Shown here: positions 854 to 35,447 of the stretch, piece after piece
Numbering within the stretch: position 1 is the stretch's first letter
Layout: each line of letters opens with the position of its first letter
Source of the DNA: a virus
Taxonomy: Duplodnaviria > Heunggongvirae > Uroviricota > Caudoviricetes
Virus record (IMG/VR): IMGVR_UViG_2778261448_000003
Reading direction: 5' to 3' (one strand)
DNA: 37,388 nt
Program-made: the position numbers and the translations under genes
Notes under the pieces: model-generated
Databases searched by the model: none
What the model was told of the DNA's origin: nothing
The model's input: only the letters and a program-made list of their open reading frames with translations

Positions 854-3800
854 TACCGATATGCTCCGCTTAACTGACCACCATCACGGGACTGCTGTTG
901 CATAAAGTCCGCTGCTGCTTTTTTTCCGAGGTCATAAACCACCTTCAGGGCAGCCGGACCTATCTGCCCGTTCGTACCATCGTTATTGATCTCGATGTTG
1001 TACTGCGGGGCAAACATCACCATACCTGAACCACCAATATCCGCCACAACACCCAGCTTGCCATCAGCACCACGACGCAATGGCAGAATGGCTTCAGGCC
1101 CCGCTTCTCCCATCACACCCGCGCCTTTTGCAAAAGCAAAAAACGTCGGACGGTTAACCACCGTGCCACTGTAGCGACTCAAATCAGCAGACTGATAAAC
1201 ACCACCATCAGCATTGGGCGTCACACTGGCAGTTGCTGCACTCCCCCAGCCAAACGCCGAACCAATCCCCTTAACTGCCTGCATCATGGCCATCTGCGAC
1301 ATGATTTTTGCCAGATCAGAAAGGAGCGAGGCGGTAAAAGATTTGAAGTTCAGTTTTCCGGTGGTACAGAACGTCGCCAGTGCATTACCTGCGCTGTTAA
1401 ATGCCGCTGTAAACATCTGCTCAGCGGTACCTGCCGCGTTATCCGCACTCTCTGTAAAATTCTGAAACGCCCGCATGGCACCGTTTTTCCAGTCTGCCTG
1501 CATCAGTTCCTGCTCCTGCCAGTAACGTCTGTTTTCGTTCAGTTGCCGGTTAAGACTGTCTGTCAGCATCTGCTCAGCATTCCGGTATTCATCTGTGCCA
1601 TATGTTCCTTTCTGCTTACTGTCACGCTCCAGCTGTTCCCGCTGCTGCTGATATTTTTGTTGCAGACTGAACTGTGCCTGGTATCGCTGACGCTGTTTAT
1701 CCCCCATCCCTGTCGTGGCGATATCCAGGTCATGTTGCTGACGCAGAGCCCGCTCCTCTTCCGCCAGCTGGCTGGAAAGCTGAATGGATTTTTTCTTCAA
1801 ATCATTCAGCGCCGTCTGCTTCTGCAGCTCCTGCTGTTTTGCATCCAGCAGCGTCAGTGCCTGAATCAGCTCATCCTTGTGAGCCAGCACACTCTTTTCA
1901 TCTGCCGTCAGTTTTTTCCCGTCCAGGTCGCTGATGCGCTGCTGCAGAGCCAGAAGCTGTTTATGCGCTTCTGTCATCCTTTCCGTGGCAATGCCTGCTG
2001 ACTGTCTGGCAGCAGCAATCTGTCCTTCCACCTGTGCCTGTAGCTGACTGTACTGCAGCAATAACCGGGTGGCCTCATCATTACGGGTGGCAGACGTTTT
2101 TTTCTTAATGGCTTTTTCGTAACGTTCATTTTCACGCTGTATCGCTGCGTCCCTGACCGCCTGATCGGCGTACTGCATGGCATTAATACGCGCAATTTCA
2201 CGCTGATGTCGTGCTGCTTCCGTTTCGTTCATCCGGTTCAGCGCGGCATTTTCAGCATTCCGGCGTTTCTGCTGCTCCTGATAATTTCGCTCAGCCTGCT
2301 CTTTTGCATCCTGCAAATCCTGCTGGCGTTTTCGCTCTTGCAGCGCATCCAGTTGTTGCTGATCGTATTCCCCCGTGGTGGACACCTTAGTCCACGGAAA
2401 TTTCTTCGCCCGCTGAATTTTTTCCTGCAGCGACGCAATCTGCGCATCAAGGGAATCTTCCCGACCAATGTTCATGGCCGCATCCCAGAACTGCTTCCAC
2501 CAGTCAGACAAGGTTTGCAGCGTACTGCCCAGCGCATTGAGGTTATTATCAATATCCGACGTACGTTTACCGGTTTCCTCTGCCAGTGCAGACATGGCTA
2601 TCCGGGCGGCGTCACTGGTGCGCCCCTGCTCTCCGAGCACACGGATCTGTTCAAGCTGGGTGGCTGTCAGAAAATGCAGTTCATCATCCAGCGCCTTCGC
2701 AGCACTGACCGGATCATCCTTCAGCCGTTTAAACTGACTGATGGTGTCACTGACAGACTGCCCTACCGAGCGTTCCATCTGTGCGGCAGCTTTCGCCACC
2801 ATACCAATATCGTTACCGTGAAATGCACCGCTCCCCACTACCTGCGCCAGTGACCCCGCCATGGCATGTTGCGTGATGCCATTACCGGAAAGATTTTTAC
2901 TGAGCGCCCACAACTGCCCGGCTGTCACACCGGCATAGTGTCCGGTGAGCTCAAGCTGCCGGTTAAAGGCTTCGCCTTCTTCCCGCCCCTCCATCCAGGC
3001 TTTACCCAGACCAATAACCGCAGCAGTGATCCCTCCGATAACTCCCCCCACCGCCAGGCCTTTCGGAGTCATTAATTTATCAATCCAGCCGGCACGGTTA
3101 GCCAGGGTGATCCCGGAGCCACGAAGCGCACCGAAATTACCACGCGCCAGTTCACCAATCATGACCCCCAGCTCCCGACGGGCTGCCGCACTTTTCAGTT
3201 CCAGCGAATGTGTGGTGTTTCCAGCTTTCTCCATTTTACGGATGTACACCTCCGCGGCACTGCTGCACCCAAGTTGTGCCGCCTTTGCCCGAAGCAGTTC
3301 CGTCGTGGTCATTTTCTGGCGACTTGTCTGTTCTTTCAGCTGACGAATAAATGCGGTTTTCTGGCGGGTGGCCGTTTCCTCTGCCTGTGTCAGAACGCGG
3401 GTTTTCGCTGTCACCTCAGAAATCAGGGCCAGATAATCCTGCTGAGCAATCCCGCCACTGTTTCTGGCCTGTCGGATCTGCTGCTGAATACGCTGTAACT
3501 CCTGCAGCCCCGCGCTGGCCTGTTTTACGCTGTCGATCTGACGATAAAATGCGGCTGCCATCTTATCCTGCGCCGCAGCCAGCGCAGCCGCCTGAACCTG
3601 CTCCTCCCGCATCTGACGACTCAGGGCCTCCATCCGCAGGCGCGCCCTTTCCACATCTTCCGCCAGCGAAACATGCCCCTGCGCATGCTTCACCACGGCC
3701 TGAGTCTGTATCACCGTCGCGCTGGCAGCCTGTTTCTGACTTTCCTCAAACCGTTTCATACGGGCTTCGGCCCGCTCCGCCTCCCTTGCTGTACCATTCA

Positions 3801-19989: not shown

Positions 19990-20351
19990 GGTCAAATCAG
20001 TAAGTGCTGAAGAGTATTATTATAATACAAGTGAGGTGTCGGGTGCCTCCCGAAATACCTGACATTCCATCAGATACTGTAGTTTCCCGGCTAAACTACT
20101 TAAACCACCCCGCACATGGAGTTCACCTCATTTTGTGATGTTAACAACATCGGGATAGTGCATAATCAGCCCCTGCCAGGAAATATCAAAAATCCCACCA
20201 ATAATGCACTATTCCGATAGCGTCAAAAAACACAGCACCGAAATCATAACTGGTCTCCGTTATAATTCGGGAGAGCGATAAAGGATATACGAGACCTTTC
20301 CCCCGCGAAAAAAACGCCAGTGCTGAAAAACCTATACCTCATTTGTTTTTC

Positions 20352-20426
<75 letters not shown>

Positions 20427-20429
20427 ATA

Positions 20430-20505
<76 letters not shown>

Positions 20506-20507
20506 AC

Positions 20508-20584
20508 TGGACCGCCACCGAGGACTCGAACCTCGCACACTCAACTTAAAGGGTTAACACTCTTTCTTGGTGAACTGGTGGCGG
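20508..20584 (-). tRNA. Atypical tRNA-like gene X (isotype uncertain; possible UUU anticodon with C33)
   Basis: CCGCCAC...CGAGG-TTCGAGT-CCTCG-GTGGCGG-T-CCA: perfect acceptor and T-arm, but D-loop lacks GG and anticodon loop is CCTTTAA; paralogous to tRNA-like Y. Confidence 0.45.
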
Positions 20585-20585
20585 T

Positions 20586-20661
20586 TGGTGGCCCTTGCTG
20601 GATTCGAACCAGCGACCTGGCGATTATGAGTCGCTCGCTCTCACCACTGAGCTAAAGGGCC
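20586..20661 (-). tRNA. tRNA-Ile2-like (anticodon CAU, ileX/ileZ type)
   Basis: GGCCCTTTAGCTCAGTGGTGAGAGCGAGCGACTCATAATCGCCAGGTCGCTGGTTCGAATCCAGCAAGGGCCACCA; closer to E. coli ileX than to elongator Met. Confidence 0.75.
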
Positions 20662-24460: not shown

Positions 24461-24616
24461 TTACTCCTCAGGTTCGTAAGCTGTGAAGACAGCGACCTCC
24501 GTCTGGCCGGTTCGGATTCGCACCTCGCAGAGGTCTTTCCTCGTTACCAGTGCCGTCACTATGACGGTTAAACAGATGACGATCAGGGCGATTAGCATCG
24601 CCTTTTGCTGCTTCAT
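24461..24616 (-). CDS. hok: Hok/Gef-family type I toxin (51 aa membrane peptide)
   Basis: Own translation: MKQQKAMLIALIVICLTVIVTALVTRKDLCEVRIRTGQTEVAVFTAYEPEE, matching HokD/RelF as recalled; absent from the ORF track because it is under 60 aa. Confidence 0.9.
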   Translation of the reverse strand: MKQQKAMLIALIVICLTVIVTALVTRKDLCEVRIRTGQTEVAVFTAYEPEE

Positions 24617-25249
24617 AGCCTGCTTCTCCTTGACCTTTCGGTCCGTAAGAGGCTAATCTCTATGTGTCGCATAGATATGGCCTCAGATTAATGTTAAGCG
24701 TCTTGCAGGACGCGTAATGTTAACTGGGGCTTTTCTCTATCTGCCGTTGGTGTTCATGCCCGAGGCAGATAGCCTCAAGCACCCACAGCCATTCTACTTA
24801 ACTACCGTTACCTCGCCAACATGAAATCAATCAGAAAGGCGAACCATAAGAACAATAACAACAATTAAATTCATTTTCTCAAATCCTGTTAACGACGCCC
24901 ATCCGACACTAACAACTTTCATTTATTATACTATTTCCCCATCGACGCTCTGCGTTGGCATAACACAAATCTGTCTGTCCGTTTGAGTAAAGAGCGGATA
25001 TCTGCAGTTTCAAAGAAACTGCGCATGCACACGAACTATCAAAGATAGTGATAACTGAGATAAAAACATATGGAAGCCTTCGGCATTTAAAAATAACAGC
25101 AAATCATATAAAAGGAAAGAGATAAGCAACATTTACATAACATGTATCACGATACGCCCCAGTGTTAATAAAAAGACTATCACTTTATTCTTTTATAATG
25201 TTAGTTTGCACTAGCAAGTGCCACTCCGAACAGAAAAAGGATACATGTA

Positions 25250-30052: not shown

Positions 30053-30244
30053 ATGAATAGAGCCCTTTCACCAATGGTTTCTGAATTTGAAACCATTGAA
30101 CAAGAAAACAGTTACAACGAATGGCTGCGTGCGAAAGTAGCAACGAGCCTTGCAGATCCGCGCCCAGCAATTCCCCATGACGAAGTTGAGCGCAGAATGG
30201 CAGAACGCTTTGCTAAAATGCGCAAGGAACGGAGCAAGCAGTAA
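30053..30244 (+). CDS. ParD/RHH-like antitoxin (63 aa)
   Basis: Start MNRALSP preceded by GGAGGA RBS; stop is 1 nt before the toxin ATG; sequence character of ParD-type antitoxins. Confidence 0.6.
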   Translation: MNRALSPMVSEFETIEQENSYNEWLRAKVATSLADPRPAIPHDEVERRMAERFAKMRKERSKQ

Positions 30245-30245
30245 A

Positions 30246-30524
30246 ATGTTACCCGTGTTATGGCTTGAAAGCGCAGATACCGACCTAGATGATATAACTA
30301 GTTATATTGCTCGTTTCGACATAGATGCGGCTGAACGCTTATGGCAGCGATTAAGGGGTTGTGTGCTGCCGTTATCCGAACATCCGTATTTATACCCACC
30401 AAGCGACAGAGTACCCGGCTTGCGTGAGATTGTAGCCCACCCTAACTATATAATTCTATACCGCGTAACAACATCAAGCGTTGAAGTAGTAAACGTGATC
30501 CACGCAAGACGCCAGTTTCCCTAA
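30246..30524 (+). CDS. ParE/RelE-family toxin (92 aa)
   Basis: Start MLPVLWLESADTDLDDITSYIARF...; C-terminal YIILYRVTTSSVEVVNVIHARR typical of ParE/RelE plasmid-stabilisation toxins. Confidence 0.65.
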   Translation: MLPVLWLESADTDLDDITSYIARFDIDAAERLWQRLRGCVLPLSEHPYLYPPSDRVPGLREIVAHPNYIILYRVTTSSVEVVNVIHARRQFP

Positions 30525-30589: not shown

Positions 30590-30640
30590 TCCGTGGTTTA
30601 GTTTTTACTTGACTTAAGTTTAATGTTTATTAAACTAAAA
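30590..30640 (+). promoter_or_regulatory. OL/pL-like region: GTTTAGT operator-like repeats overlapping a sigma70-like promoter (-35 TTGACT, -10 TAAACT)
   Basis: TGGTTTAGTTTTTACTTGACTTAAGTTTAATGTTTATTAAACT; shares the repeat core with the OR region; precedes the plus-strand early-left genes. Confidence 0.5.
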
Positions 30641-30815
30641 ATACCAACCCACCCCGAGCCACAGAACGCCAGGCAATACTTCGAGTTATCCGGCAGTGGT
30701 CAGGGGATAAGTAGCCAGCCCGAGGCGTAAGAACATGACGGCAGGGTTCAACTTTAATAACTATGCAGCAGGTTTTTGTTCCGCTACCCCAGCGTTAAGG
30801 GGAAATGAGGTCAAC

Positions 30816-30971
30816 ATGGATACTATCGATCTTGGCAACAACGAATCTCTGGTGTGCGGCGTGTTTCCCAACCAGGACGGCACATTCACCGCGATGACGT
30901 ATACCAAAAGCAAAACGTTTAAAACCGAAAATGGTGCCCGTCGCTGGCTGGAAAGAAACTCAGGTGAGTGA
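30816..30971 (+). CDS. Small early-left protein (51 aa, YdaF-like)
   Basis: Start MDTIDLG with AAGGGGA RBS; first gene after the pL-like promoter. Confidence 0.5.
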   Translation: MDTIDLGNNESLVCGVFPNQDGTFTAMTYTKSKTFKTENGARRWLERNSGE

Positions 30972-31371: not shown

Positions 31372-31692
31372 ATGGAATTTAAAGATTTACCAATGCAATT
31401 CCAGGAAATGGCAGCGAATATAGTTCGTTCCCAACTGGCGACTCTTGACCTGAGTACCGTAGAAAAAGAAACCATCGATACTATATCCGGTAACGTGCGT
31501 CGTGCCTTTATCGGTCTGTACGAAGAGAAGCAGCTCTCTGATAACCAGGATTTACATGAAAAATACTTCCTGGATCTAATGGACATCATTGATAAGGGGT
31601 TTGGCTTGTTAATGAAAAAGAAAGGGATTCGAATAGACCCCCTTGAAAATTACTTTGCAACAAAAAGCATTAATTCTTTTGATTCAAAATAA
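31372..31692 (+). CDS. Hypothetical early-left protein (106 aa)
   Basis: ORF with AGGCTAATAATG context; no family recognised. Confidence 0.45.
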   Translation: MEFKDLPMQFQEMAANIVRSQLATLDLSTVEKETIDTISGNVRRAFIGLYEEKQLSDNQDLHEKYFLDLMDIIDKGFGLLMKKKGIRIDPLENYFATKSINSFDSK

Positions 31693-31945
31693 GAGAATTA
31701 ATTACAGACTTAACATGCTCTTTCTCATGATTGAAGCTCTCATGATTGAAAGTGCCGGGTTGAAGCGAGTCGATATAATCAACAAGACTCTGTCGTACGA
31801 CTTCATTTTTATCCATAACAGATGCAAGAAATGAAATTGCTAAAAGAGTTATATCACTACGCGCCGCAGCATGCTGCAATGCTTTATCAAAATTATTAAT
31901 CTGGCGTATCAGGGAGTTAATGATTTCATCATTTTCAGTCGACAT
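31670..31945 (-). CDS. Hypothetical AT-rich antisense-oriented small protein (91 aa from MSTENDEII)
   Basis: Start preceded by GGAGGG RBS; AT-rich composition contrasts with neighbours; convergent with the pL operon. Confidence 0.5.
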   Translation of the reverse strand: MSTENDEIINSLIRQINNFDKALQHAAARSDITLLAISFLASVMDKNEVVRQSLVDYIDSLQPGTFNHESFNHEKEHVKSVINSLILNQKN

Positions 31946-32506
31946 TTCACCCTCCTGAGGGTTGGTGATTAAGGAGTTCTCCACGGGTGAGGTGGAGTGC
32001 GTGCGCCGGACACGGGTGAGCATACGGCACTGACAGTTTACTGAAAGGATATTTCCCTGAAAAGTCAGACCATAACGCGAAAGCGCACGGCGAGGTAGCT
32101 GGTTCATAGATAGCCTGTCGTTAAATTTTCGTCGACCGTGCGCTTCCGGTTGTGGCACTCCGCGAAATGGCGCGACGGTAAGTATGGCGGGGTTATTCCT
32201 TCCCCGTTGAGGACACCGGGTTGTCAGGTTGACCATACGCTTAAGTGACAACCCCGCTACAACGCCCTCTGTTATCAATTTTCTGGTGACGTTTGGCGGT
32301 ATCAGTTTTACTCCGTGGCTGCTCTGCCGCCCTTTTTAAAGTGAATTTTGTGATGCGGTGAATGCGGCTAAGCGCACGCGGAACAGTTAAAACCAAAAAC
32401 AGTGTTATGGGTGGATTCTCTGTATCCGACGTTAATTGTTAACTGGTTAACGTCACCTGGAGGCACCAGGCACCGCATCACAAAATTCATTGTTGAGGAC
32501 GCGATA

Positions 32507-32695
32507 ATGGAAACGTTATTACCAAACGTTAATACGTCTGAAGGTTGTTTTGAAATTGGTGTCACTATCAGTAACCCTGTATTTACTGAAGATGCCATTA
32601 ACAAGAGAAAACACGAACGGGAGTTATTAAATAAAATATGCATTCTTTCAATGCTGGCCCGTTTACGTCCGATACAAAAAGGATGCTGGCAATGA
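32507..32695 (+). CDS. Hypothetical small protein (62 aa)
   Basis: Start METLLPNV; stop overlaps the start region of the next small gene. Confidence 0.4.
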   Translation: METLLPNVNTSEGCFEIGVTISNPVFTEDAINKRKHERELLNKICILSMLARLRPIQKGCWQ

Positions 32696-32883
32696 ATACA
32701 GCATTTGCACTTGTTCTGACAGTTTTTCTTGTTTCCGGAGAGCCAGTTGATATTGCAGTCAGTGTTCACAGAACAATGCAGGAATGTATGGCAGCAGCAA
32801 CCGAACAGAAAATTCCCGGTAACTGTTACCCGGTCGATAAAGTTATTCACCAGGATAGTAACGAAATCCCGGCAGGTCTTTAA
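32683..32883 (+). CDS. Small secreted or membrane-anchored protein (66 aa; N-terminal signal peptide, two Cys)
   Basis: MLAMNTAFALVLTVFLVSGEP hydrophobic leader then a hydrophilic domain. Confidence 0.45.
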   Translation: MLAMNTAFALVLTVFLVSGEPVDIAVSVHRTMQECMAAATEQKIPGNCYPVDKVIHQDSNEIPAGL

Positions 32884-32975: not shown

Positions 32976-35447
32976 ATGAGTAAAGTCTTTATTTGCGCCG
33001 CCATTCCGGACGAACAGGCAATAAAGGAAGAAGGTGCAGTCGCTGTAGCTACTGCCATTGAAGCCGGTGATGAACGTCGCGCCCGCGCAAAATTTCACTG
33101 GCAATTCCTGGAACATTATCCGGCTGCTCAGGACTGCGCTTATAAATTTCTTGTCTGCGAGGATAAACCCGGTATACCCCGCCCTGCCCTCGATTCCTGG
33201 GATGCTGAATATATGCAGGAAAACCGCTGGGATGAGGAGTCTGCTTCCTTTGTCCCGGTTGAGACTGAATCAGATCCGATGAACGTCACTTTTGACAAGC
33301 TGGCCCCTGAAGTACAGAACGCTGTCATGGTTAAGTTCGACACATGTGAAAACATCACTGTTGATATGGTGATTAGCGCACAGGAATTGTTGCAGGAAGA
33401 CATGGCAACATTCGACGGCCATATCGTTGAAGCGTTGATGAAAATGCCAGAAGTAAACGCCATGTATCCGGAGCTTAAGCTGCATGCCATCGGGTGGGTT
33501 AAGCATAAATGTAAGCCTGGTGCCAAATGGCCCGAAATTCAGGCAGAGATGTGCATCTGGAAAAAACGTCGCGAAGGTGAACGCAAGGAAACCGGAAAAT
33601 ACACGTCTGTTGTTGATCTCGCCCGCGCCAGACCCAATCAACAGAACACTGAAAATTCAACAGGAAAAATCAACCCGGTCATTGCTGCCACTCATCGCGA
33701 ATACAAGCAGACATGGAAAACACTGGATGACGAACTGGCCTACGCTCTCTGGCCTGGTGATGTGGATGCCGGAAACATTGACGGCAGCATCCATCGCTGG
33801 GCAAAAAATGAAGTTATCGACAACGACCGCGAAGACTGGAAGCGTATCTCGGCATCAATGCGCAAACAGCCTGATGCCCTTCGCTACGACCGCCAGACTA
33901 TTTTTGGCCTTGTCCGTGAACGTCCGATCGACATTCACAAAGACCCTGTGGCACTGAACAAATACATTACTGAATACCTGACTACAAAGGGCGTGTTTGA
34001 AGATGAAGGAAGAAATCAGAGCGCAACTGATACTCTCTCGTCGCCAGTACCAGAAACTGATGCAGTGGAAACGGCAATTCCGGACAACGAAAAAACCGAA
34101 TGCAAAGTGGAAGTCGAACCATCTGTAGAGCGTGAGGGGCCGTTCTACTTCCTCTTCACCGACAAGAATGGCGAAAAATACGGTCGCGCAAACAAACTTT
34201 CTGGTCTGGATAAGGCGCTGGCTGCCGGGGCTACTGAAATCACGAAAGAAGAATATTTCGCCCGCAAAAACGGTACATACTCAGGTTCACAACAAAATAC
34301 TGGTGCATCTGACACGACCGCACAACCAGAGCCGGTAAAAGTTACCGCTGACGAAGTAAACAAAATTATGCAGGCAGCCAATATCAGCCGGCCTGACGCC
34401 GATGAACTGCTTGCAGTATCACGTGGTGAATTTGTTGCAGGGATTAGCGATCCGAATGATCCGAAATGGGTGAAGGGGATTGAAACCCGCGATTCTGTGA
34501 ACCAGAACCAGCAAGAAACGGAACAGAACGACCAGAAAGCGGAACAAAACAGCCCAAATGCGTTACAAAATGAGCCAGAAACGAAACAATCCGAACCAGT
34601 AGCGCAACAGGAACCGGAAAAAGTCTGCACCGCCTGCGGTCAGAGCGGTGGCGGCAACTGCCCTGATTGTGGCGCGGTGATGGGCGACGCAACATACCAG
34701 GAAACATTCGATGAAGAGAATCAGGTTGAAGTTCAGGAAAATGATCCGGAGGAAATGGAAGGCGCTGAACATCCACACAAGGAGAACCCTGGCGGCAATC
34801 AGCATCACGCCAGCGATAATAAAACTGGCGAGGCGACAGATCCCTTAATTAAGGTGAATGGTCATTATAAGCTCACATCCACCAGCAGAGCGGGGATTCA
34901 TCTGATGATCGACCTTGAAACAATGGGAAAAAATCCCGATGCCCCGATTATCTCAATAGGCGCAATATTTTTCGATCCACAAACCGGAGAGATGGGGCCG
35001 GAATTTAGCAAGACCATCGATCTGGATACGGCTGGCGGAGTCATTGATCGTGACGTCATTAAATGGTGGCTGAAGCAATCACGTGAAGCGCAGTCTGCCA
35101 TTATGACCGATGAAATCCCGTTAGATGATGCACTACTGCAATTGCGGGAATTTATCGACGAAAACTCCGGTGAATTTTTTGTTCAGGTCTGGGGTAATGG
35201 GGCCAACTTCGACAACGTGATTTTACGCCGTTCATACGAACGACAGGGTATCCCCTGCCCGTGGCGCTACTGCAACGATCGCGATGTACGCACAATCGTT
35301 GAGCTGGGGAAAGCCATAGACTTCGATGCCAGAACTGCTATCCCATTCGAAGGTGAGCGCCATAATGCACTTGATGACGCTCGTTACCAGGCAAAATACG
35401 TTTCAGCTATCTGGCAAAAACTGATCCCGAGTCAGGCTGATTTTTAA
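32976..35447 (+). CDS. RecE (exodeoxyribonuclease VIII)-like early protein with C-terminal DEDD-type 3'-5' exonuclease domain
   Basis: 823 aa; central LLAVSRGEFVAGISDPNDPKWVKGIETRD segment recalled from Rac RecE; C-terminal DLETMG...NGANFD...HNALDDARY is a DnaQ-like DEDDh signature; Cys4 motif CTACG...CPDCG. Confidence 0.6.
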   Translation: MSKVFICAAIPDEQAIKEEGAVAVATAIEAGDERRARAKFHWQFLEHYPAAQDCAYKFLVCEDKPGIPRPALDSWDAEYMQENRWDEESASFVPVETESDPMNVTFDKLAPEVQNAVMVKFDTCENITVDMVISAQELLQEDMATFDGHIVEALMKMPEVNAMYPELKLHAIGWVKHKCKPGAKWPEIQAEMCIWKKRREGERKETGKYTSVVDLARARPNQQNTENSTGKINPVIAATHREYKQTWKTLDDELAYALWPGDVDAGNIDGSIHRWAKNEVIDNDREDWKRISASMRKQPDALRYDRQTIFGLVRERPIDIHKDPVALNKYITEYLTTKGVFEDEGRNQSATDTLSSPVPETDAVETAIPDNEKTECKVEVEPSVEREGPFYFLFTDKNGEKYGRANKLSGLDKALAAGATEITKEEYFARKNGTYSGSQQNTGASDTTAQPEPVKVTADEVNKIMQAANISRPDADELLAVSRGEFVAGISDPNDPKWVKGIETRDSVNQNQQETEQNDQKAEQNSPNALQNEPETKQSEPVAQQEPEKVCTACGQSGGGNCPDCGAVMGDATYQETFDEENQVEVQENDPEEMEGAEHPHKENPGGNQHHASDNKTGEATDPLIKVNGHYKLTSTSRAGIHLMIDLETMGKNPDAPIISIGAIFFDPQTGEMGPEFSKTIDLDTAGGVIDRDVIKWWLKQSREAQSAIMTDEIPLDDALLQLREFIDENSGEFFVQVWGNGANFDNVILRRSYERQGIPCPWRYCNDRDVRTIVELGKAIDFDARTAIPFEGERHNALDDARYQAKYVSAIWQKLIPSQADF

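Follow-up and report, generated by a model that had tools for sequence, protein, structure and literature searches.

A predicted STnc100-like RNA domain, closed by a long helix and probable RNase III site, lies between dicF and dicB in a Qin-like prophage

The window analysed here is a 37,388-nt stretch of viral DNA (Caudoviricetes; IMG/VR virus record IMGVR_UViG_2778261448_000003), and our study concerns its positions 31,950 to 32,506. This segment represents the dicF-dicB portion of an early-left operon of the dicBF type, which belongs to a Qin-like lambdoid prophage and is read along the plus strand. Between the gene for DicF, a small RNA (sRNA), and the coding sequence of dicB it contains a perfect 19-nt inverted repeat that is not a product of chance and that forms, in the transcript, the closing helix (helix P1) of a 110-nt domain which is related to the RNA family STnc100. 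We consider it likely that helix P1, which closes the STnc100-like domain in front of dicB, is the RNase III site following DicF, and that RNase III processing accounts for the arrangement as a whole. Both DicF and DicB are textbook examples of cell-division inhibitors encoded by prophages, and their locus, together with its processing by RNases III and E, has been known since 1988-1990.

A repeat search of the window places the two arms at 32342-32360 (TGAATTTTGTGATGCGGTG) and 32471-32489 (CACCGCATCACAAAATTCA); they are 100% complementary and separated by 110 nt. A preceding sequence-only reading of this DNA had recognised the repeat correctly, while the coordinates that it gave (32341-32360 and 32469-32488) and its spacing of 108 bp were off by 1-2 nt. 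When A-U and G·U pairs are allowed, helix P1 comprises 21 unbroken base pairs (32340-32360 with 32471-32491), and RNAfold continues it to 27 bp beyond a 1-nt bulge. Among all inverted repeats with a loop of up to 200 nt, this is the longest in the window, and the maximum found in each of 100 dinucleotide-preserving shuffles was 10-14 nt; the 19-nt repeat is consequently not fortuitous. RNase III accommodates about 22 bp of double-stranded RNA, which it cleaves in a staggered fashion, leaving 2-nt 3' overhangs (PMC6212723). With its 21 bp, or 27 bp with one bulge, helix P1 has the length of an RNase III site (about 20-22 bp or more), and the same applies to a 23-bp stem located upstream of DicF. 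The two arms can be summarised as follows.

32340-32360, plus strand: 5' arm of helix P1, corresponding to the first arm of the inverted repeat (repeat search, folding, shuffles); the cut yielding 72-nt DicF is predicted near 32351/32352.
32471-32491, plus strand: 3' arm of helix P1 (repeat search, pairing in relatives); the staggered partner cut is predicted near 32481/32482.

The identity of the locus follows from its matches to DicF and DicB and from its similarity to Escherichia coli K-12, to which positions 31960-32520 are 97% identical in the interval between ydfC and dicB. DicF was recovered with the Rfam model RF00039 at 75 bits (gathering score 48) over 32281-32332 and model positions 1-52 of 52. 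Its first 36 nt, including the seed, are identical to those of K-12 DicF, and a terminator hairpin with U-tract is present at 32315-32337. In K-12, the single-stranded 5' seed of DicF pairs with ftsZ and manX. The start of DicB lies 175 nt downstream of DicF, and ydfA-like and ydfD-like open reading frames (ORFs) flank the two, which places DicF inside a dicBF-type operon; DicB itself matches PF05358 at 127 bits over residues 1-62 of 62 and is annotated as dicB in RefSeq E. coli genomes. Of 5426 complete E. coli genomes, 4643 contain the region, frequently in more than one copy (median 2, up to 9 places per genome), and it also occurs in Qin-like phages, for example mEp460 and Tritos. In the window, the operon part of interest is composed of the following elements.

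32280-32337, plus strand: DicF sRNA, with the 53-nt form at 32280-32332, a terminator hairpin at 32295-32331 and a U-tract at 32333-32337 (Rfam and terminator-like site).
32495-32695, plus strand: dicB with its ribosome-binding site GAGGA (32495-32499), start codon ATG at 32507 and stop codon at 32693-32695 (Pfam DicB PF05358).
32692-32883, plus strand: ydfD homologue of 63 amino acids (DUF1482, 88 bits), in the dicB-ydfD arrangement of K-12.

The two small genes that had been noticed downstream of the repeat are thereby accounted for by Pfam: the ORF beginning with METLLPNV is dicB (32507-32695), and ydfD (32692-32883) follows it with an ATGA start/stop overlap. The accompanying statement that the segment lacks a credible gene is right for proteins, since 31950-32506 contains neither a Pfam match nor a conserved ORF, and it overlooked the RNA gene for DicF. 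Likewise, the suggestion that an sRNA might be encoded here was justified in that a known one, DicF, is present; it lies upstream of the inverted repeat and not within it.

The order DicF, 175-nt spacer, dicB, ydfD and exonuclease gene is shared with the Qin dicBF operon of K-12 (ydfABC-dicF-dicB-ydfD), as are the two long helices that flank DicF, with which the published 53-, 72- and 190-nt species are in agreement. The window differs from K-12 in carrying other small ORFs and a minus-strand ORF of 91 amino acids instead of ydfB and ydfC, in a helix P1 composed entirely of Watson-Crick pairs where that of K-12 has two G·U pairs, and in an intact exonuclease gene (823 amino acids) that is a pseudogene in K-12.

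The 110-nt interior of the inverted repeat is a conserved structured domain in its own right. A permissive Rfam scan (1.2-kb search) gave a full-length match to STnc100 (RF02076) at 32330-32539 with 38.1 bits and an E-value of 1.9e-6, which is below the gathering score of 47, and the closing helix of this match is the inverted repeat. The RNA folding and Rfam scan that the sequence-only reading had proposed yielded the extended helix P1, DicF (75 bits) and this sub-threshold match. Against the same STnc100 model, the corresponding copies from Rac and P7 reach 43.8 and 43.0 bits. Model R1, a covariance model for which sequences of the window's subfamily alone were used, in turn retrieves Rfam-grade STnc100 copies at 43-71 bits (E-values of 1e-9 to 1e-17) and the copy of phage P1 at 92 bits; it scores the unit of the window at 140.9 bits on the plus strand versus 14.1 bits on the minus strand. 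The kinship is therefore reciprocal, even though the copy in the window fails the Rfam threshold. Judged from these comparisons, the domain is a divergent, sub-threshold, embedded relative of STnc100, and a clear homologue. Its predicted architecture is as follows.

32361-32470, plus strand: STnc100-like core domain (sub-threshold Rfam match, model R1, pair counts, pseudoknot covariation).
32361-32363, plus strand: junction AAU of the core domain.
32364-32379, plus strand: P2 of the core domain, a 5-bp stem with a bulged A and the loop UAAGC (UNNGC in the family).
32380-32382 with 32425-32427, plus strand: closing pairs of the variable P3 of the core domain.
32384-32390 with 32439-32445, plus strand: pseudoknot CAGUUAA/UUAACUG, whose second strand is the loop of P4 (covariation).
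32428-32435 with 32447-32454, plus strand: P4 of the core domain.
32456-32470, plus strand: P5 of the core domain, CCUGG-AGGCA-CCAGG (in the family CCNGG-AGGCA-CCNGG, an invariant hairpin), adjoining the 3' strand of helix P1.

The core that the domain shares with STnc100 comprises the motif CACCNGGAGGCACNNGGCACC, GGUGAAU and the P2 hairpin, alongside the reciprocal homology. Motif CACCNGGAGGCACNNGGCACC is found in at least 120 IMG/VR contigs, many copies being Rfam-grade STnc100, and copies bearing it often stand in arrays of 2-4 beside transfer RNA (tRNA) genes. Both the window copy and STnc100/PasD occur in temperate phages of Enterobacteriaceae, and in both a helix P1 ending in GGUG/CACC, which are the inner pairs throughout the family, is followed by AAU, P2, a variable arm, P4, and CCNGG-AGGCA-CCNGG next to the 3' strand of helix P1. 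They differ in P2 (GCGGC...GC-A-CGC in the window, CCCCC...GG-A-GGG(G) in STnc100), in the length of helix P1 (at least 21 bp as compared with 4-10 bp), and in that the window copy, embedded between an sRNA and an ORF, is devoid of a promoter and terminator of its own. The hosts of the domain belong to the Enterobacteriaceae (Escherichia, Shigella, Citrobacter, Enterobacter). An almost identical 110-nt core lies upstream of dicB in the Qin prophage of K-12, of kilR in Rac, and of terB/tciA in P7, where it follows two tRNA genes; the conservation in related prophages for which the earlier reading had asked is thus present. The same core also precedes other small ORFs, phage P1 carries it upstream of tciA/terB in the ban operon, and in one subgroup of the family the tail of the domain is the DicF-like sRNA of the Rac type.

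STnc100 and PasD are Hfq-associated prophage sRNAs with targets in trans, as found by co-immunoprecipitation and RIL-seq (bioRxiv 10.64898/2026.05.13.724894). Given the clear homology that the sub-threshold match reveals, one could imagine the unit to be an sRNA gene in its own right, of the STnc100/PasD type, dependent on Hfq and equipped with a promoter located between dicF and dicB. Many members of the family do have a TTGACA-type promoter just 5' of helix P1 and a terminator after a spacer of 25-60 nt, and an older study, cited in a preprint (bioRxiv 10.1101/2023.04.14.536235), proposed a promoter upstream of dicB. In the window, however, no promoter-like site is found on the plus strand within 32281-32507 and no terminator between the unit and dicB, and helix P1 begins only 3 nt after the U-tract of the DicF terminator; moreover, primer extension in K-12 detected no additional operon promoter (bioRxiv 10.1101/2023.04.14.536235), and the window copy scores below the Rfam gathering threshold. 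We regard such an sRNA gene as improbable.

How helix P1 varies among relatives (the latter designated by locus numbers where needed) discloses on which level it is maintained. In K-12, one C-to-U change in each arm produces G·U pairs. L064 has two fully compensatory changes (A:U to G:C and U:A to C:G), L057 one (U:A to G:C), and P7 two compensatory pairs, while Rac-type copies have U·G for U:A and a bulged A after the tenth pair. Single mismatches occur in three variants, namely L117/L123 and L043 (A·C) and L057 (U·U). As the G·U changes would be A·C mismatches on the opposite strand, the compensatory and G·U substitutions fit an RNA of the plus strand only, and helix P1 is an RNA structure of that strand.

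Covariation extends into the domain. In an alignment of 15 sequences of the window's subfamily (alignment A2), 88% of the cells pair, compared with 78% after shuffling and 32-43% with slid partners; at 16 pairs both partners have changed, and none of 500 shuffles attains the values observed. The pseudoknot has been replaced entirely between subgroups (CAGUUAA/UUAACUG, AAGGUUG/CAACCUU, GAACUGGCA/UGCCAGUUC, AGACUGACAAA/UUUGUCAGUCU). Because loop lengths shift the register, counting it in fixed columns of alignment A2 fails in five sequences, and a comparison of cognate with permuted strands was used instead: the cognate score is 17.2 versus 12.97 +/- 0.38 for permuted strands, a value reached in none of 10000 permutations.

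These data bear directly on two explanations that place the function of the repeat in the DNA. It might be an operator, a site of recombination or a palindrome able to form a cruciform, and the perfect palindromic arms together with the internal palindrome GACGTTAA...TTAACGTC (32428-32454) could indeed bind dimeric proteins. Yet the C-to-U and A-to-G changes opposite G and U in K-12 and Rac types break the symmetry of the DNA and keep the pairing of the RNA, the pseudoknot covaries, the covariance-model score is strand-specific, and a spacing of 110 bp between the arms is unusual for an operator; a role as DNA is therefore very improbable. The remnant of a miniature inverted-repeat transposable element (MITE) or of another mobile element with terminal inverted repeats, which the sequence-only reading had considered, is scarcely credible. 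Its appeal derives from a near-perfect 19-bp inverted repeat around about 110 bp and from the presence of the whole region in many genomes and at several places within them. The search for further copies that had been advised in this connection found these arms just once in the window, and the one further family member there (described below) has different ones. Elsewhere, copies are always found in the same orientation and at the same place in the operon, no direct repeat is shared by the flanks ...TTTTTAAAG and TTGTTGAGG (TTAAAG, TTGTTG), which thus give no target-site duplication, the interior is better conserved than the outer arms, and the arms covary or turn to G·U in a manner that maintains pairing of the plus-strand RNA and not symmetry of the DNA.

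Two publications (PMC5069750, PMC9438474) state that the 72-nt form of DicF arises when RNase III processes dicBF RNA of full length. Counting from the start of DicF, 32280 + 71 gives 32351, so that the 72-nt form would have its last base at about position 10 of the 5' arm (19 nt) of helix P1. The cuts are probably made at about 32351/32352 and 32481/32482, the latter position following from the rule of 2-nt overhangs.

These considerations lend themselves to a simple processing model. Transcripts from the DicA-repressed promoter upstream of ydfA would traverse the 23-bp stem, to be cut there by RNase III, next the conserved part of the precursor, and lastly DicF together with its intrinsic terminator. 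Read-through of this terminator would produce the 110-nt pseudoknotted domain closed by the helix of 21 bp (27 bp when extended). Cleavage on both sides, near 32351/32352 and 32481/32482, would generate 72-nt DicF with a 19-nt tail, excise a domain of about 130 nt that retains a 9-bp helix P1 (GAUGCGGUG/CACCGCAUC), the same size as in free-standing and P7 copies, and leave a dicB messenger RNA (mRNA) whose short leader, of about 25 nt, carries a 5' monophosphate. In this way the sRNA would become uncoupled from the mRNA for the toxic division inhibitor. We infer the placing of the cuts in the 23-bp stem and in helix P1, the release of the domain and the effect on dicB expression. The consequence for DicB might go in either direction, as the short monophosphorylated leader would favour decay, and translation could be favoured once a helix extending to the GAGG of the ribosome-binding site is removed; folding did not decide between the two.

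Precedents are provided by RNase III stems that bracket an RNA, such as those of the 16S and 23S ribosomal RNA precursors, the inter-cistronic sites of phage T7 and the N leader of phage lambda. Here, too, a long-range helix of about 22 bp surrounds a structured RNA, and a staggered double cut would free the enclosed RNA and separate the flanking transcripts (PMC6212723 and established RNase III biology). The case described here differs in that a 110-nt phage domain is enclosed and that cleavage is deduced from a published product length.

The extended form of helix P1 is a feature of embedded copies. In the Qin and Rac copies it spans 19-27 bp, in free-standing relatives 4-10 bp. A Citrobacter copy (L129) has an unbroken helix P1 of 21 bp, the outer half of which is of another sequence (CAGGCUUUAAGG...), and the Enterobacter copies L141 and L143 have an 11-bp A/U extension, again of a different sequence. 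Since long forms with differing sequences recur in these two genera, the extension is a structure kept by selection on pairing. No DicF-like RNA was found upstream of the Citrobacter or Enterobacter copies. In L141 (4822-4946, minus strand) and L143 (742-863, plus strand), the domain lies about 30 nt upstream of an ORF of 186 amino acids that resembles a LuxR-type regulator. The neighbours look chromosomal, with ORFs that by appearance resemble cytochrome b561 and an oxidoreductase, and the two Enterobacter loci would thus appear to represent a non-phage use of the leader form.

Several observations weigh against the processing model or otherwise bear on it, and we set them out together. The folding z-scores of -6.0 on the plus and -6.4 on the minus strand mean that thermodynamics does not separate the strands. 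In phage P1, in P7 and in one Escherichia copy, helix P1 has just 9-10 bp, and excision by RNase III is consequently not a property of the whole family. The predicted accessibility of the dicB Shine-Dalgarno sequence hardly changed between foldings with and without the domain, which permits no decision. In favour of the model, Table S1 of Gordon et al. (2017) has an entry for RNase III-dependent coverage at position 1649470 ('dicF-dicB intergenic'), where reads number 0 and 0 in the wild type versus 26 in the rnc mutant, and coordinate transfer puts it in P2, about 8 nt inside the helix; we count this as weak support, the data consisting of low counts from an unstranded library, with a resolution of 400 bp and a very long list of sites. 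The entry for Rac in the same data (1418510) lies upstream of the DicF-like RNA and outside the domain, and zero coverage of the domain in the wild type speaks against the presence of a stable excised RNA in exponential-phase K-12. The deep-sequencing tables of small RNAs of Shinhara (2011) contain no candidate in the dicF-dicB spacer. Ragunathan et al. (2023; bioRxiv 10.1101/2023.04.14.536235) reported RNase III action only at the 5' side, giving the 190-nt species, and detected no transcript that includes dicB. Finally, the 72-nt end was calculated from the product length given in two secondary sources, and its true position may differ by a few nucleotides.

Among the possibilities raised at the outset for the inverted repeat, a regulatory leader came nearest, inasmuch as the repeat is the closing helix of a conserved RNA domain in the DicF-dicB transcript. 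Taken further, this view holds that the unit is a cis-acting leader of dicB, be it a translational operator, a thermosensor, or a riboswitch-like domain binding a ligand or protein, in which the long helix or the folded domain gates the access of ribosomes to the dicB start and cleavage by RNase III is incidental. The 27-bp form of helix P1 that RNAfold predicts does pair the GAGG of dicB with the U-tract after DicF, the covarying pseudoknot and the invariant loops are reminiscent of ligand- or protein-binding RNAs, and the domain precedes a variety of toxic or regulatory ORFs (dicB, kilR, terB/tciA, small ORFs and the LuxR-type Enterobacter gene). On the other hand, the distance from helix P1 to the Shine-Dalgarno sequence ranges from 3 to about 24 nt among leader-type copies, a helix of at least 21 bp is too stable for switching, many family members have a terminator and no ORF downstream, and Shine-Dalgarno accessibility is predicted to be nearly the same with or without the domain. 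We judge this explanation to be rather unlikely, while noting that a translational or ligand-sensing leader can possibly coexist with processing. Sequestration of the Shine-Dalgarno sequence as the conserved role of helix P1 was discarded on account of the variable spacing and the uninformative folding.

RNase III processing of the dicBF transcript also offers a view of the region upstream of DicF, whose complementary segments are explained by the known maturation of DicF by RNases III and E. The first pair of segments singled out by the sequence-only reading was found again at 32078-32090/32136-32148 (13 nt, 92%) as part of a 23-bp helix (32070-32095 with 32130-32155), and the second, at 32218-32226/32246-32254, is the core of a 13-bp hairpin. 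In K-12, DicF is excised from a polycistronic transcript, with RNase III generating the 5' terminus of the 190-nt species and RNase E that of the 53-nt form (bioRxiv 10.1101/2023.04.14.536235). Counted back 190 nt from the DicF terminator (32332-32337), this end would fall at 32143-32148 and thus inside the 3' arm of the 23-bp stem, which is the probable RNase III site that sets the 5' end of the 190-nt precursor.

32070-32155, plus strand: upstream stem-loop of 23 bp, 32070-32095 with 32130-32155 (helix of minimum free energy and repeat search); probable RNase III site.
32160-32256, plus strand: conserved part of the precursor, comprising two hairpins (32186-32208 and 32218-32254) and found also in the leader of the P1/P7 ban operon and in Stx2c and cdtI phages.

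The precursor segment is 81% identical to P7 71044-71141 (L002 1092-1189), directly after the Op(ban) operator, and 76.5% identical to phage P1 68739-68833 (L128 340-434), where the match partly overlaps the feature 'dicF-like region' of that record (68791-892; L128 392-493). These matches lie within the first 100-200 nt of the ban-operon transcript of P7 and P1. Identity to Stx2c phages amounts to 89%, and phage cdtI also shares the segment.

A few further regulatory schemes were entertained for the domain. In the immI region of P1 and P7, the c4 antisense RNA originates from the leader of icd (a division inhibitor) and ant, and as in the dicBF operon a small structured RNA is processed from a transcript that encodes a cell-division inhibitor downstream. 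The c4 RNA is matured by RNase P. We rejected a kinship with P1 c4 or the P4 CI RNA, as c4 constitutes a separate Rfam family and no C4 match was found in 31600-32800 at E-values up to 10, whereas the c4 of P7 scores 69.6 bits with Rfam C4; phages P1 and P7 themselves also carry the domain of the window, in the ban operon. No conserved complementarity of the domain to the start regions or ribosome-binding sites of dicB or kilR was detected. A put-like RNA for processive antitermination was set aside by reasoning, in that many family members directly precede their own working terminator (HK022 was not included). The notion that the anti-sRNAs AgvB and AsxR are 3' tails of such units found no support; these are short primary transcripts in convergent pairs (Tree et al.).

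With regard to DicF itself, its seed (32285-32293) is complementary over 9 nt to 32449-32457 (AACGUCACC) at the P4/P5 boundary of the domain, and 32289-32296 are complementary over 8 nt to 32522-32529 (CCAAACGU) in codons 6-8 of dicB. By such seed pairing DicF could act on the mRNA of its own operon. Rac-type loci, in which the upstream DicF-like RNA bears a different seed (GCUGUGUGUAGUC), do not conserve this complementarity, and we therefore treat it as unproven. The sRNA in question was seen in Rac-type prophages (L003 2490-2544; L127 about 895-967, minus strand; L064; L068), scores 38-43 bits against the gathering score of 48, and stands directly upstream of the STnc100-like domain and kilR; a module of sRNA, domain and kil gene is thus common to Qin and Rac. 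In the IMG/VR prophage L068 (5482-5964, minus strand), a DicF-like RNA, an STnc100-like domain, a small ORF, an isrK-like RNA and a C4 antisense RNA follow one another, so that a dicF-type module is joined to an immI-type module as in phage P1.

A second divergent STnc100-like RNA is predicted elsewhere in the window, at 20027-20135 on the minus strand (R1 33.4 bits, E-value of about 1e-7; missed by Rfam at its gathering threshold). With P1 UGAGGUG/CACCUCA, P5 UCGGG-AGGCA-CCCGA, and a spacer and intrinsic terminator extending to about 19962, it looks free-standing. It lies just downstream of a cluster of three phage tRNA genes on the minus strand (20352-20661; Met-CAT, Thr-TGT, Gly-TCC), a setting in which STnc100-type RNAs are usually found in related phages. 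In the ban operon of P7 (L002 2304-2388), an unannotated match resembling tRNA-Sec (46.6 bits against a threshold of 47) is located between tRNA-Thr and the STnc100-like domain.

Around the dicF-dicB segment, a YdfA-like ORF (DUF1391) is found at 30735-30971, and the intact exonuclease gene begins at 32976. The ORFs at 31372-31692 (plus strand) and 31673-31945 (minus strand, 91 amino acids, within the operon) have no Pfam match and occupy the place of K-12 ydfB/ydfC; the latter is the only credible part of a minus-strand ORF of 202 amino acids. Homology to K-12 restarts at 31960, after these non-K-12 ORFs. A promoter-like site at 30609-30636 falls in the putative promoter region of the dicB operon, upstream of which an ORF at 30150-30524 (plus strand) carries a ParE-toxin domain (Pfam, 59.6 bits). 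A sok-type antitoxin RNA (RF01794, 101 bits) at 24614-24784 on the minus strand implies a hok/sok-like locus in the same prophage.

The invariant loops, the bulged A and the covarying pseudoknot point to a specific partner of the domain. Tentatively, and with considerable doubt, we propose that the 110-nt core is a modular element for binding a host factor, belonging to a large and under-described class (the STnc100/PasD superfamily) of pseudoknotted and possibly tRNA-shaped RNAs of enterobacterial temperate phages. Stacking of helix P1 on the 5-bp P5, in the manner of acceptor and T arms, suggests such a shape, and so do the invariant GC dinucleotides in the loops of P2 and P5, which could form an 'elbow'. 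Were this true, the domain would be an element placed either before an sRNA seed and terminator or before host-killing ORFs (dicB, kilR, tciA), the embedded form would be excised by RNase III through the added long helix, and it would be the domain, not the helix, that sets the timing of the division inhibitor or acts in trans once released.

The dicF-dicB locus is already known, and identifying the domain adds to it modestly. In the literature searched, we found no assignment of the dicF-dicB spacer, or of the kilR and tciA leaders, to the STnc100 family, no report of a covarying pseudoknot in that family, and no report linking the long helix P1 to the cut that yields 72-nt DicF. At a minimum, a known locus has been correctly identified, and an unannotated DicF as well as two STnc100-like RNAs that standard thresholds miss have come to light. 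How the toxic dicB message is separated from DicF and silenced is still being worked out, and by assigning each of the two published RNase III events to a helix of about 22 bp on either side of DicF, our analysis offers a simple, testable processing map. Recognition of the 175-nt dicF-dicB spacer as a divergent STnc100-like pseudoknotted domain links the Qin and Rac prophages of K-12 and the ban operons of P1 and P7 to one RNA family, the same family that includes abundant Hfq-bound prophage sRNAs of enterohaemorrhagic and enteropathogenic E. coli (EHEC, EPEC) and of Salmonella.

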